This document shows positions 36,960-55,565 of a DNA stretch of 56,252 bases, piece after piece (position 1 is the stretch's first letter; each line of letters starts with the position of its first letter). A program made the position numbers and the translations under genes. Source of the stretch: an uncultured Bacilli bacterium (lineage in GTDB: Bacteria > Bacillota_I > Bacilli_A > RF39 > UBA660). The stretch lies in NCBI GenBank assembly GCA_947625575.1, contig CANQOV010000004.1:1-56252 (forward strand), read 5' to 3'. Below the pieces are notes generated by a model. The model was not told the DNA's origin. It made no database searches and saw nothing but the letters and a program-made list of their open reading frames with translations.

Positions 36960-36988
36960 AGTATAGCCCCCCCCCCGACCTTTGTCAA
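36960..36988 (-). promoter_or_regulatory. sigma-A-type promoter with G10 tract in 17-bp spacer
   Basis: TTGACA-AAGGTC-G10-C-TATACT. Confidence 0.8.
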
Positions 36989-37116
36989 CAATTAAACAAA
37001 AGAAATCTGAAAGAAATCTCCCAGACTTTTAAATTTAATAACAAATAACAACATATAAATTCAACATAAAAAGAGCAAGCAGATTTTTTGAAATTTCTTG
37101 CTCCTGAACAATTTTA

Positions 37117-40100
37117 TTATTTTCCACCACCAATATTACTTCCAGCATTATTTCCATTTTGTTTAGCTCTTAAACTTTCAACATATTTTGGATCAAGCTC
37201 AGTCTTTTGACGAATTATAGATTGAATTTCACCTGCTCTATCCTTTGTACCAGCAGTTAATTTAACTAAATTGCCATAATTTCCATTTATATTTTCAATA
37301 CCTCTAGACTCTGCAACTTTATGTATTGATTCAAATCTTTGCAAGTTAACTTGAGCATCTCCAAGTTCTCTGCGAATAACGTTTCTCCTTCCCTCATCTA
37401 TTTGCATAGTAGAAACGTGTTTAACAGATCTACCTTGTTCATTTTTAGTAGTGGTTATATAGCCAACAGTCTCAAGAATATTACCAACTTGTTCACCAGA
37501 TAAACCAGTACCAACAAATAATCTACTATAAGAAACTTCCTTTCCAGAGGTTTGTGCATTAATCCAATTTTCTCTTACTTTAGCATACTGTTGGTCAGTC
37601 ATCTGTATTTTACCATTTGTCCTAGCTATACTAAATGTAGTAAGATCTTTACTTCCATCAGCTATACTATCTATATTCTTTTTATATGATTCAAAACTAT
37701 CCACTTCATTTTGCTCTTTCCGTAATCCTGAAACTTGTTTATCAACTTGCAATGCATAATCTAAACCAACTGCACCAAACAAAGTATTATCAAGTTGTGT
37801 ACCAAAACCAACCCCAGCAGTATATAATGCAGTCCTTTTTCGATTTATTTCCGATGCATGTTTACTTCCAGCAAATAACTTGCCACGAGCTCCACCACCA
37901 AGACCTAACAAAGATGATGAAGCAACAGTTCCAACGCCTTGTGCTATAGCACCAAGTTTGTTTTTCCAACCTTTTGCAGCAATAACGCTAGGGGCAGCTG
38001 TAGCAGAAGCAACTGTAGCACCAATTGCACCACCTGCTGCAACGCCAAGACCAGCCTTAACCATATTCATGCTTTCTTTAAATGTACTATCGCCACTAAG
38101 TCCGAATATTTTACTAATGAAATTAGGACCAGACTTCATAAATATTAGGACACCTAACACAGTAAATATTTTTGCAAATCCAGAGCTATCAAAAACTCTT
38201 GGAATTTCTGCTAAAATTTTAACACCAGCACTAACTGAAATTAATTTTAAAAATATATCACAATAAGCACTAAAATACATTTTAGTCCATTGACCAAATA
38301 CTTTGTCAGATGGATTAATATAACTTACAACTGCTATTGGAGCAATTGATTCCAAAAGCCATAATTTTATACCCCTAACAACAACTTCAATACATATAAC
38401 AGCCATTAAGAAAATAGCAATAATTGCAAATACAATAGCTAAAATAGAATCAAATTGCAAATCACCATTTTTTAATAATTTACCAAAAGCAGAATTATCA
38501 CTTGATGAATTTAAAAAATTATCATAAATTTTTTCACAGCTAGATTCACATTTTTTAGGATCCTTTTTAATAAATGCCTTTATAACATCCTTAGAAAAAC
38601 ATATTCCACTATATTTATTACCATCACAATCTCTACCATAATTTTCTTCATATCCACCATCAATTGCTTCATTTAAATCATCACGTACATCAGCATCTTC
38701 ATTGCAAACATTATTCAAGACATCATCAATATAACGACCTTGAATATTTTCCCATGAAGACTGTCCATAGTTAGTAAGTCCAGAATATTTATTATATTGA
38801 TCAATAGCAACCCATGATTTATCAGAAAACATTATATTACCATCAAAATCATCATTTACAGTAATACTATATCCCCCTAGACTAGGATCACGACGAGTCA
38901 TATCTAATCCGATAATAGAAGCTGGGCAAGATACCTCAGACAAACCTTTATCAAGTGCAGCAAACATATCAACAGCACCATAACTTGCAATTATTTTTTT
39001 CCCTGTTACGTTCCAATGGACACCAGTATCAGTATTAACTGTAATATCCCATTTTAAAGAGCCATCAGTTTTTTTATTAAAAAAAGCAGTGCTAAATAAA
39101 CTAGGATCAAATATAGGATTAGCATCATCTCTTGGAGTAAAAACAACTGTAATTTTTCTATCTTTAACCTCTAAATACCTTATATTATTACAAGTATGAG
39201 TATCAGAATTTGCAACTAATAAATCATCATAACTATCTCTAAAAATATATGTACAAGAAAAGCTGTTTCTTTCCTGCTCAGGAATTTTAACATCAGCATG
39301 AAGTGTAAATGAAAGACATCCAGAATCATCATTTGCACCAGTACTATGATCCATGCAAGTAAAGTAACCTTCATTATCAAGAGAATCATCATCAAATCCT
39401 AAAAATATATAATCATCACTATAAGAAGCTACCCCATTTAACTCAATATTATAACAATTTCTTTCTCCGTTGCAACTTGTGGAACTATATTTATTTGCCT
39501 TATACCCATCAGTTATAGCTCCACCCCAACCAGCAGTTCTACAAGATGAAAAATCCAAATCAGGACAAGCTTGCGGATTAACATTTATTTTATGACTATT
39601 AAAATAATTAAGATATTCTTGAAATCTAGCCTTAACATCACCCATCGAACAACCAGCATACATATCATTAAAATTACTCATTTTTGGAGTAAAATCTTTA
39701 ACAGACCCAGAATATCCATATTCTTTCGTACAACTTGTTGCTGAATTACTAATTAGCGGTCTTTCTCCATTCGTGCTAGTTTCTGCTTTAACATTTTGCC
39801 ATACTAAATTACTATTTCCTATTCTATATTGATTTGAAATAGGATTAATGATTTTATCATTAATTTCAATATCATTAAACAAATTCATCAATATTCCAGT
39901 TCTTGAAGTAAGCATATCTTGAACATCATGTAAAAGTGGAAATATAAAATTTGGTAATGTTAAAAGTAAAGCAATTGAAACAACTATTCTAACTAAAAGT
40001 TTTCCAGCTCCAATTTGCTTATCAGAAACTTTATCAGGATCAACTAAATACGTTAAAGCCGAAACAACTAATCTAAATAATATAAACACTCCTACAATAG

Positions 40101-40236
40101 TATATACACTTAAACTAACATTTTCTAATAAACTTGAATTAAAAAAAGCAGAGCTTAACTCAATCATTATATCATAAACACCAGCCAACCCTCTACCAAA
40201 AAGGCTTCCTACAGTATTCGCCCAAAATTTTTCCAT
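37117..40236 (-). CDS. giant VirB6/TrbL-like membrane protein (paralogue 2)
   Basis: same N-terminal 'DPDKVSDKQIGAGK' and 'VVVRGIKLWLLESIAPI' core; divergent Cys-rich middle. Confidence 0.7.
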   Translation of the reverse strand: MEKFWANTVGSLFGRGLAGVYDIMIELSSAFFNSSLLENVSLSVYTIVGVFILFRLVVSALTYLVDPDKVSDKQIGAGKLLVRIVVSIALLLTLPNFIFPLLHDVQDMLTSRTGILMNLFNDIEINDKIINPISNQYRIGNSNLVWQNVKAETSTNGERPLISNSATSCTKEYGYSGSVKDFTPKMSNFNDMYAGCSMGDVKARFQEYLNYFNSHKINVNPQACPDLDFSSCRTAGWGGAITDGYKANKYSSTSCNGERNCYNIELNGVASYSDDYIFLGFDDDSLDNEGYFTCMDHSTGANDDSGCLSFTLHADVKIPEQERNSFSCTYIFRDSYDDLLVANSDTHTCNNIRYLEVKDRKITVVFTPRDDANPIFDPSLFSTAFFNKKTDGSLKWDITVNTDTGVHWNVTGKKIIASYGAVDMFAALDKGLSEVSCPASIIGLDMTRRDPSLGGYSITVNDDFDGNIMFSDKSWVAIDQYNKYSGLTNYGQSSWENIQGRYIDDVLNNVCNEDADVRDDLNEAIDGGYEENYGRDCDGNKYSGICFSKDVIKAFIKKDPKKCESSCEKIYDNFLNSSSDNSAFGKLLKNGDLQFDSILAIVFAIIAIFLMAVICIEVVVRGIKLWLLESIAPIAVVSYINPSDKVFGQWTKMYFSAYCDIFLKLISVSAGVKILAEIPRVFDSSGFAKIFTVLGVLIFMKSGPNFISKIFGLSGDSTFKESMNMVKAGLGVAAGGAIGATVASATAAPSVIAAKGWKNKLGAIAQGVGTVASSSLLGLGGGARGKLFAGSKHASEINRKRTALYTAGVGFGTQLDNTLFGAVGLDYALQVDKQVSGLRKEQNEVDSFESYKKNIDSIADGSKDLTTFSIARTNGKIQMTDQQYAKVRENWINAQTSGKEVSYSRLFVGTGLSGEQVGNILETVGYITTTKNEQGRSVKHVSTMQIDEGRRNVIRRELGDAQVNLQRFESIHKVAESRGIENINGNYGNLVKLTAGTKDRAGEIQSIIRQKTELDPKYVESLRAKQNGNNAGSNIGGGK

Positions 40237-40339
40237 ATCACACCTACCTTATATTACAAACTTCTTTTTCATACCAAAATATATAAATTTACTACTAATA
40301 CCAAAATAAAAAATGCAGCAACTCTATTTTACAATTTTA

Positions 40340-54772: not shown

Positions 54773-54792
54773 ATTTATTTCCTTTCTATAAA

Positions 54793-55485
54793 TTATTCTC
54801 CTTTAGTTCCAATAGGTTTAACTGTTGAATCAACATTAACTTTTAATTTATAAGTATGTTCTTTTGAAGCATCAACTTGATCTTCTGGAACAGTTTCTTG
54901 TTCACTATCAGGTAAAGTGAATTTTACATCTTTATCAATCCACATCCTTAAATGATATGTAGTTGTTGTCGTATGATTATCATCATCACTCACAGGATGT
55001 TCATCAGTTGTGCTATAAATCACATAACAATCATTTCTGCCTTCTACTTGAGATTTTGTAAGTAAATTAAGTAAAACCGCCTCTTTTGCTACAGTCTCAG
55101 TAGGCTCTTCGCCACTTTTATATGTAGTTAAATAAACCTTAATTTGGCCATCTTTTAATGCATCATCGTCTTCAGCATTATCTGGTTTTAAATTTATTTC
55201 GTATGGTACATCTACTCCATTTGCAGTTGTTGAAACAGTAAATTCAAAATAATCGTTACTAGTTTGTGCAGCATCTTCATCTGTAACTGGCAATGCATCT
55301 TTTGTATTAATTACATGACTAGTTTCAACATAACTAACAGTTATTGTACCAGTCTTAATTGTATTCACATCAGATTCTCTAGTAATTGAAAAAATTGAAA
55401 AAGATACACCAACAACTGAAACAATTAAAATTGCTACACCCAAAACCGCTAACAAAATCTTCCCAGTATCACTTTTTCTTTCCAT
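54793..55485 (-). CDS. SipW-type signal peptide / TasA-like fibre protein A (copy 1)
   Basis: close paralogue of 53197-53883. Confidence 0.65.
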   Translation of the reverse strand: MERKSDTGKILLAVLGVAILIVSVVGVSFSIFSITRESDVNTIKTGTITVSYVETSHVINTKDALPVTDEDAAQTSNDYFEFTVSTTANGVDVPYEINLKPDNAEDDDALKDGQIKVYLTTYKSGEEPTETVAKEAVLLNLLTKSQVEGRNDCYVIYSTTDEHPVSDDDNHTTTTTYHLRMWIDKDVKFTLPDSEQETVPEDQVDASKEHTYKLKVNVDSTVKPIGTKGE

Positions 55486-55537
55486 ATCTTATCCTCACCT
55501 TCTTATCATATTGTAAGCTATTATTCTCACAATTATA

Positions 55538-55565
55538 ATTATAACCCCCCCCCGACCTCTGTCAA
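55538..55565 (-). promoter_or_regulatory. promoter with G9 tract in 16-bp spacer
   Basis: TTGACA-GAGGTC-G9-T-TATAAT. Confidence 0.8.

Follow-up and report, generated by a model that had tools for sequence, protein, structure and literature searches.

Slippage-prone homopolymers in promoter spacers are a textbook mechanism. In Treponema pallidum tp0126, a poly-G tract lies between the -35 and -10 boxes, with an optimum at 17 bp, a poly-G spacer tract in Neisseria meningitidis porA acts in the same way (both PMC7864442), and N. gonorrhoeae fetA carries poly-C in its promoter spacer (PMC5320596). Here we describe four candidate promoters of this design in a 56,252-nt stretch of DNA from an uncultured Bacilli bacterium of the RF39 group (contig CANQOV010000004.1 of assembly GCA_947625575.1, contig 4 of the genome; hereafter the window). 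They precede two VirB6/TrbL-like genes of a type IV secretion system (T4SS)-like cluster and two operons for TasA-like fibre proteins, and they are probably classical slipped-strand phase or volume switches, each acting independently on its own locus.

Related tracts are known from several organisms. In T. pallidum, poly-G tracts of ~8–11 occur in the promoters of the paralogous surface-protein genes tp0126, tprE/G/J and tprL, with 7–11 G within isolates (PMC7864442); this is a spirochaete with other target genes, and its tpr tracts are located just 5' of the start site, with a CRP-like factor acting alongside. What porA and fetA share with our loci is a homopolymer between the -35 and -10 boxes, the length of which sets the spacing and thereby the transcription level of a surface-protein gene, as it would here; they differ in belonging to Gram-negative pathogens, where a genome has a single promoter of this kind or very few, whereas here 18 candidates, with perfect consensus hexamers, are found in 1.15 Mb of an uncultured gut Bacilli. 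A small-genome Bacilli/Mollicutes relative, Mycoplasma hyorhinis, which uses genetic code 4, has poly-A in the promoter spacer of each vlp lipoprotein gene and thereby achieves combinatorial surface variation. Both cases would involve a surface-protein family with one homopolymer promoter switch per gene, but the vlp tracts are poly-A and act on lipoproteins, whereas ours are poly-G and the targets include a T4SS-like channel and TasA-like fibre proteins.

Dozens of G/C tracts of ~8–11, mostly in genes for surface structures, make up the phasomes of the small AT-rich genomes of Campylobacter and Helicobacter (PMC6321876, PMC8355987, PMC2823697). Tracts lie both within and between genes, as in our genome; theirs are mostly intragenic, whereas half of ours are in promoter spacers. 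Campylobacter and Helicobacter are not known to have mismatch repair of the MutS/MutL type, whereas MutS and MutL are both present here.

As the mechanism is known, the value of these loci lies in a new host lineage, an uncultured small-genome gut Bacilli, and in new targets, the VirB6-like and TasA-like genes. Literature searches (within one collection of papers, supplements not covered) returned no paper on RF39 with phase variation that was relevant by title and abstract, no mention of VirB6 among the papers listed for phase variation with homopolymeric tracts, and, among the titles listed for TasA/SipW with phase variation, none on repeat switches.

Four candidate promoter modules with G tracts in their spacers

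The 56-kb window, at 27% GC, contains only four G/C runs of six or more, and all of them lie inside the same promoter module. The original prediction, drawn from the sequence of this DNA, had located four such tracts with spacers of 17, 15, 18 and 16 bp, and its coordinates and lengths are borne out by the sequence:

36960..36988, minus strand: promoter module 1, TTGACA-AAGGTC-G10-C-TATACT; spacer 17 bp; tract at 36967-36976
40340..40366, minus strand: promoter module 2, TTGACA-GGGGTC-G9-TATAAT; spacer 15 bp; tract at 40346-40354
53936..53965, minus strand: promoter module 3, TTGACA-GAGGTCT-G10-T-TATAAT; spacer 18 bp; tract at 53943-53952
55538..55565, minus strand: promoter module 4, TTGACA-GAGGTC-G9-T-TATAAT; spacer 16 bp; tract at 55545-55553

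All four tracts read C on the plus strand and G on the minus strand; nearly all genes of the window have the minus strand as their sense strand. The pattern TTGACA-N2-9-G8-N0-6-TATAMT matched four times in the window and not once in any of 100 dinucleotide shuffles. When positions 36500–56252 were scanned for promoters, sites 4, 3 and 1 ranked among the top five of 125 matches, with 12/12, 12/12 and 11/12 hexamer positions agreeing with the consensus, respectively; two further promoter-like sites in this region also reach 11/12. Site 2 is absent from the scan because its 15-bp spacer falls outside the 16–18 bp range used.

A ribosome-binding site (RBS) and a start codon follow every module, 29 to 109 nt past the tract, and the genes that they open are those named in the original prediction, two VirB6-like genes and both fibre operons:

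33842..36937, minus strand: VirB6/TrbL-like paralogue 1, 1031 amino acids (aa); ATG 29 nt past the tract, with a GGGAG RBS before it
37117..40236, minus strand: VirB6/TrbL-like paralogue 2, 1039 aa; leader of ~100 nt; Pfam TrbL_4 match with E 1.9e-12 and 47.6 bits, above the cut-off of 27
53883..52428, minus strand: fibre operon 1, TasA-like proteins of 228 and 246 aa, with an N-terminal anchor or signal ending in SFAVF / SYAMY
55485..54023, minus strand: fibre operon 2, TasA-like proteins of 230 and 249 aa; paralogous to operon 1

A hairpin followed by a U run lies 5' of each module, and these structures are significant at three of the four:

37003..37109, minus strand: two terminator-like hairpins between paralogue 2 and module 1, one of them at 37028-37003; z -2.1
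40397..40438, minus strand: terminator-like hairpin after paralogue 3 and 5' of module 2, a 15-bp stem with U8; ΔG -15.3, z -3.3
53998..54024, minus strand: weak A/U-rich hairpin and U run after fibre operon 2 and 5' of module 3; z -0.8, not significant
55594..55631, minus strand: terminator-like hairpin 5' of module 4, 15 pairs and a U run; z -5.0

Given a terminator-like hairpin 5' of each module, the four units look like separate, insulated transcription units. From the consensus hexamers, the 15–18-bp spacers, the RBS and start codons 3' of them and the hairpins 5' of them, the repeats are predicted to lie in core promoters. Sites 1–4 would be housekeeping promoters of sigma-70/SigA type and of consensus quality that precede surface-related genes and have a spacer made up mostly of a slippage-prone G tract.

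Similarity between the modules extends beyond the hexamers. The ~20 bp upstream that the two VirB6-like promoters were said to have in common are indeed shared, with 19/20 positions 5' of the -35 box identical between sites 1 and 2. The GGTC core, also singled out originally, is present in all four window modules but in only 6/18 promoter-type modules genome-wide.

G tracts across the genome

A genome scan for the same module, which the original prediction had proposed, yielded 18 promoter-type sites in the assembly (1.154 Mb, 26.8% GC, 75 contigs), whose DnaE has relatives that bear the names of uncultured Bacilli, Tenericutes or Mollicutes bins and of 'Clostridium sp. CAG:433'. These sites belong to a larger set of 34 G runs of 8–11, where ~0.2 runs of eight or more would be expected from base composition. 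The length distribution is 8 (four runs), 9 (seven), 10 (20) and 11 (three); runs of seven are absent, and there are eight runs of six. Among the 28 tracts that could be classified as promoter type (18) or coding type (10), all 28 have G on the sense strand of the downstream gene, although paralogy makes these cases non-independent.

Each promoter-type tract begins 2–9 nt past a perfect TTGACA. Twelve are of a 'GAG(G)TC...TTATAAT' type, and in the other six, which form a second type, the tract is followed by TATG(T/C)TAnnAT; seen from the other side, of the 37 perfect TTGACA-N15-19-TATAAT sites genome-wide, 10 have a spacer that contains G8 or longer. Their targets comprise the two VirB6-like genes, four small TasA-like operons, larger proteins with a TasA-like N-terminal domain, five tandem secreted proteins with InlB-B repeats, and an open reading frame (ORF) at C1:25919 in a putative glycosyltransferase operon. 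Surface or secreted proteins such as the VirB6-like, TasA-like and InlB-repeat proteins are also the usual targets in known phasomes. The spacers of the 12 TATAAT-type modules measure 15 bp (two modules), 16 (two), 17 (five), 18 (one), 19 (one) and 20 (one), a spread around the optimum that is expected if some units are on, others dimmed and others off. Four fibre-family promoters with near-identical flanks carry tracts of G10, G9, G9 and G8. In the first three of these promoters the 30 nt that follow the tract are all the same, and the G8 copy is more diverged (40% there).

The coding-type tracts provide evidence for a length-dependent switch in this genome. Ten paralogous genes encode surface proteins that reach 856 aa and have a TasA-like N-terminal domain, and each carries G9–G11 at 22 nt past the ATG (C7:11942, C8:18756, C14:1904, C26:113, C35:1826, C36:9028, C42:881, C47:333, C47:7250 and C53:68). 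G9 keeps the gene in frame at two loci, and with G10 (seven loci) or G11 (one locus) the frame ends after 12–16 aa. At all eight truncated loci, the frame used by the intact copies is free of stops in the assembled sequence, for 845 and 846 aa up to its own stop and for 607, 292, 38, 36, 21 and 9 aa up to the contig end. As judged from sequence, this pattern is a signature of translational phase variation. Since the coding tracts set genes on or off by length with an open frame downstream, tracts of such length and composition do appear to change in this lineage.

It is these coding-type tracts, together with the G8/G9/G9/G10 series of paralogous promoters, that make stochastic switching, as originally proposed, the best reading of sites 1–4. 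During replication, a G9–G10 spacer tract would gain or lose one G by slipped-strand mispairing, and the altered spacing and rotational phasing of the consensus hexamers would change promoter strength. A spacer of the optimal 17 bp corresponds to G10 at sites 1 and 4, G11 at site 2 and G9 at site 3, all inside the range of 8–11 seen in the genome. Each insulated unit would switch alone, so that a population may consist of cells that, beside one constitutive paralogue, have mixed combinations of two alternative VirB6-like channel subunits and two TasA-like fibre operons. Sites 1–4 would be members of a set of contingency loci spread over the genome, with 34 G tracts of which 18 lie in promoters and 10 in reading frames, and this set would diversify the cell surface. 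This reading presumes frequent changes in the length of the promoter tracts, transcription start sites 3' of the proposed -10 boxes, and a dependence of expression on spacer length. From the 17-bp rule, and solely from it, we infer that paralogue 1 would be on, paralogue 2 off and the fibre operons intermediate, the states assigned in the original prediction.

A different view takes the G tract as a fixed structural promoter element, such as a rigid GC spacer or a factor site, whose lengths were tuned slowly over evolution. A module of ~40–65 bp is indeed conserved beyond the hexamers, at 84–95% identity between unrelated genes; in BLAST searches with the regions of sites 2 and 4, promoter cores of 36–67 bp were recovered at this identity. 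The distribution of tract lengths is also narrow, with 20/34 tracts at G10. This view, however, has difficulty with the 8/10 coding-type genes that are broken by tract length alone, which are hard to explain without recurrent slippage, and with fibre promoters that share the 30 nt past the tract and nevertheless differ as G10, G9 and G9, the diverged copy having G8. Moreover, G8–G11 tracts are hypermutable wherever they have been measured, for instance with 7–11 G within single T. pallidum isolates (PMC7864442). We therefore consider a fixed element unlikely, and slipped-strand switching the better account.

That the tracts are sequencing or assembly artefacts, for example two-colour poly-G noise, is very improbable. 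The genome was assembled from a metagenome, and several tracts outside the window lie no more than 350 nt from contig ends; against this, the tracts of the window are internal with unique flanks, and the tracts occupy one functional position (4/4 in the window, 18 genome-wide) or one codon position (at 10 loci). An independent contig spans one of the tracts, and similar tracts occur in the assemblies of relatives and in one metagenome contig.

At two other loci, a G10/G11 tract lies in a mini-ORF of 12–14 codons ~90 nt 5' of a large TasA-like gene (C17:20182 and C22:15113). In addition, the 3' part of a gene of the PD-(D/E)XK (Rpn-like) transposase family and its terminator, at 55594-55860 of the window, are repeated at 78–93% identity, mostly at contig ends and beside phase-variable loci (C8:45-265, C20, C25:13644-13839, C29:11862-12112, C47:103-290 and C57:4593-4766); Pfam PDDEXK_2 matches only two places in the genome.

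Tract length in reads and relatives

Several observations weigh against switching at sites 1–4. Public runs that contain this DNA are labelled rabbit gut or gut metagenomes (8 runs, all as contigs), and four of them were aligned to the window, at a depth of ~3–5. Among the pieces listed, a single contig bridges a tract (run X1, 53778-54295, gapless), with the same G10 at site 3 as the assembly; insertions or deletions do not show at any of the four sites, which at this coverage speaks neither for nor against switching. Homopolymer lengths in a metagenome assembly may be off by one. We found no near-identical allelic contig (at least 95% identity) in the assembly, the best other matches being paralogues of at most 94%, and a metagenome scan with the GGTC-core module found no strain of the same species. 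The absence of visible heterogeneity, at very poor coverage, is also what a fixed element would give.

The predominance of exactly G10 in the genome has a counterpart in G013, a genome from another genus of the family, where all 19 inspected tracts (loci L136–L154) are exactly G9. In 15 of these 19, the tract sits in a conserved module (hairpin, TGCAACT-G9-TGCAAT/TGCGAT-ACAAT, RBS, ATG AAA AAA). Such uniform tract length agrees with stabilising selection or low mutability no less than with a switch, and the conserved flanks of the G013 tracts speak for the fixed-element view. The same applies to MutS and MutL, which are both encoded in the genome, a point that counts against switching as well; with both present, mismatch repair is probably intact, and slippage need not be very frequent. 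Loss of mismatch repair as a driver was rejected for the same reason.

The scarcity of tracts at orthologous loci also weighs against the switch. None of 13 VirB6-like loci of relatives has a G/C run of six or more, and only 3/21 fibre-family loci of relatives have a run of seven or more, two just 5' of the gene and one beyond it at a contig end. In G001, a genome of the same genus, the VirB6-like orthologue directly follows the preceding gene, and the promoter region of the fibre gene has no G run. Since orthologous VirB6-like and fibre genes are mostly without tracts, switches on these genes appear to be recent. In favour of a switch, the design is seen again in relatives, as 57/121 genomes of the family have a G tract of nine or more (per-genome tract counts in this survey being inflated by overlapping matches), and the strict promoter module occurs in 4/41 genomes searched, our own included. 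In G002, again of the same genus, a G7 lies just past a start codon (L114:2244-2250), 5' of a homologous gene; it resembles the G10/G11 tracts of 'other' type in our genome, the equivalence of position having been judged by eye. A genome-collection scan with VirB6-like paralogue 2 found no relative.

A metagenome contig from another low-GC organism (L001:433-460, minus strand) carries TTGACA-AAGGTC-G10-TATAAT before a gene for a small membrane protein, and its interval from the -35 box to the tract is that of site 1. Contigs from the public runs stop matching at the terminators 5' of modules 2 and 3 (X2 at 40435; X5 at 54005), and promoter-plus-gene cassettes may be arranged differently in other strains.

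The T4SS-like cluster, the fibre family and their relation

The remaining members of the T4SS-like cluster surround the two paralogues with poly-G promoters:

40448..42973, minus strand: VirB6/TrbL-like paralogue 3, 841 aa; TrbL_4 match of 30.2 bits, above the cut-off of 27; no poly-G
30640..33750, minus strand: rest of the T4SS-like cluster, with small membrane proteins at 33445-33750 and 33097-33423 and VirB4-like ATPase ORFs at 32433-33116 and 30640-32436

Paralogue 3 heads the cluster and is preceded by an ordinary promoter-like site without poly-G, TTGCTA-17-TG-TATAAT at 43066-43038 (minus strand). Paralogue 1 matches TrbL_4 (PF19597) under the cut-off of 27 (E 9e-4, 19.1 bits) and NCBIfam families of Mycoplasma transmembrane proteins from integrative and conjugative elements (ICE) with E 5e-10, likewise under the cut-off, and is 37% identical to paralogue 2 over residues 3–861. 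For the VirB6-like proteins as a group, the best NCBIfam matches are Mycoplasma-ICE membrane proteins (Mbov_0396 / Mbov_0397), under the cut-offs, and their atlas neighbours bear TrbL_4. Across the three paralogues, the membrane segments are mostly 43–76% identical, and a loop of ~450 aa and the C-terminal tail are mostly at or below 35%.

Next to these genes lies the VirB4-like ATPase (331.8 bits, below the NCBIfam cut-off of 590), which consists of ORFs of 227 and 598 aa with a 4-nt overlap (30640-33116, minus strand). The split, at model positions ~92-280 / 292-891, recurs in 8/9 relatives from the family, so that it is no defect but a conserved two-gene form, and we rejected the idea of a pseudogene. 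The small membrane proteins and VirB4 genes have their own hairpin and TGTTATAAT -10 box near 33785, after paralogue 1; with this hairpin and separate TGTTATAAT promoter in place, site 1 is unlikely to act as a switch for all of the T4SS genes 3' of it. Of 15 relatives from the family, 14 have VirB6-like genes, and the cluster is flanked by housekeeping genes (DnaE, PPDK, Mur ligases and Ddl), which together make it a conserved chromosomal feature and not an obvious mobile element. Rickettsiales T4SSs likewise have several tandem, enlarged VirB6-like genes beside VirB4, with conserved membrane cores and divergent extensions (PMC2653234, PMC7648143); they differ from our cluster in lineage and gene order, and here the best family matches are of Mycoplasma-ICE type, under the cut-offs.

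The proteins of both fibre operons (228–249 aa) have an N-terminal hydrophobic anchor, and the first genes of the two operons are 79% identical. A 263-aa ORF at 51574-52365 may follow in the transcription unit of operon 1. For the first fibre gene, 833 homologues were found, none with a Pfam domain or a name. An AlphaFold model of the 228-aa protein, built from 40 of 120 homologues among the matches listed, has a predicted local distance difference test (pLDDT) score of 74, and its only Foldseek hit at E at or below 1e-3 is the TasA fibre 8aur_A (E 1.8e-4, probability 1.0, template modelling (TM) score 0.42). At the level of sequence families, the proteins of the window matched no TasA or camelysin family (Pfam E at or below 0.01; NCBIfam E at or below 0.1), and TapA gave a chance-level hit only (E 0.047). 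The genome holds 30 matches to the family, some fused to long C-terminal parts, and one member adjoins a SipW-type (archaeal-type) signal peptidase at C6:19851-20342 (TIGR02228, 96.7 bits against a cut-off of 51.85). By predicted fold and context, 'fibre operon' is a fair label. The B. subtilis TasA/SipW system is thus matched by the predicted fold, by an anchor ending of SFA-VF type and by the SipW-type peptidase beside one family member, and differs in that our proteins match no Pfam or NCBIfam TasA/camelysin family and belong to an expanded family with long C-terminal fusions. In B. subtilis, TasA is under regulatory control and is not known to be under control by repeats.

The original prediction had concluded from a promoter module common to two unrelated surface systems that these work together. 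In such a co-regulated regulon, the shared element CTTTTG-WTTAATTG beside the -35 box would bind a common regulator, and the T4SS-like genes and the fibres would act jointly. The near identity of the upstream 20 nt of sites 1 and 2 would suit this idea, as would their 14–15/20 matches with site 3 or with the fibre promoter at C27:10994; on C6, moreover, a VirD4-type gene lies ~3.5 kb 5' of a TasA-like gene and the SipW-type peptidase. The resemblance does not extend to site 4 and C27:276, however, which share only 50–60% of these 20 nt with the VirB6-like promoters, and the same module also precedes the genes with InlB repeats, and a related one (40–45% in the upstream 20 nt) the putative glycosyltransferase operon. 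Each unit has its own tract length, which argues for independent switching, and independent stochastic tracts would uncouple the units, not couple them. DnaE, QueH, two Mur ligases, a recombinase and a sigma factor separate the fibre operons from the T4SS-like cluster, and on C6 a sortase and a large serine recombinase stand between the VirD4 and fibre genes, suggesting the border of a mobile element. With 18 promoter-type sites before at least four unrelated gene families, GGTC in a minority of them and paralogue 3 free of poly-G, the module appears to be a general design of this genome and so implies no specific link between the two systems. We therefore regard a joint regulon as improbable and did not retain that part of the prediction, and keep to switches that would act independently at each locus.

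The VirD4-type coupling protein is encoded on C6 and not in the window. There, C6:13823-21709 reads VirD4-type protein, sortase, large serine recombinase, a protein without assignment, TasA-like 228-aa protein, SipW-type peptidase and two further proteins without assignment; two tandem genes for tyrosyl-tRNA synthetase stand just 5' of this row, which may be the border of an integrative element. In the window itself, a 708-aa protein of the sigma-70 family (20897-23023, minus strand) has regions 1.2, 2 and 4 at residues 218–472, with long N- and C-terminal parts that have no Pfam match, and a gene of the choloylglycine (bile-salt) hydrolase family (23118-24092, minus strand, E 3.5e-110) fits the gut habitat.

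Going one step further, we tentatively propose a chromosomal, Mycoplasma-ICE-like T4SS apparatus, conserved in the family, with one constitutive and two independently phase-variable VirB6-like subunits. Through their diverged loops and C-terminal tails, the exposed part of the secretion or mating channel might be exchanged stochastically, alongside more than 25 switchable TasA-like and adhesin-like surface proteins brought under such control by a poly-G promoter cassette of 40–65 bp that spread between unrelated genes. If this possibility holds, a T4SS channel component would for the first time be seen to vary through a repeat. With ~30 tracts per Mb, the phasome would also rank among the densest on record, although the commensal has kept its mismatch repair.

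Most work on phase variation has dealt with pathogens in culture. In the present case, an uncultured gut commensal lineage with a reduced genome appears to devote ~34 loci to it. Among these are genes for alternative subunits of a T4SS-like apparatus that is itself conserved, and for TasA-like fibre proteins of a very large family. Should the tracts vary, metagenome-assembled genomes of this group would systematically misreport gene states, and assemblies would break at the tracts; and surface heterogeneity in response to host immunity, phages or mating partners would be a major part of the lifestyle of these bacteria, which are abundant but unstudied.

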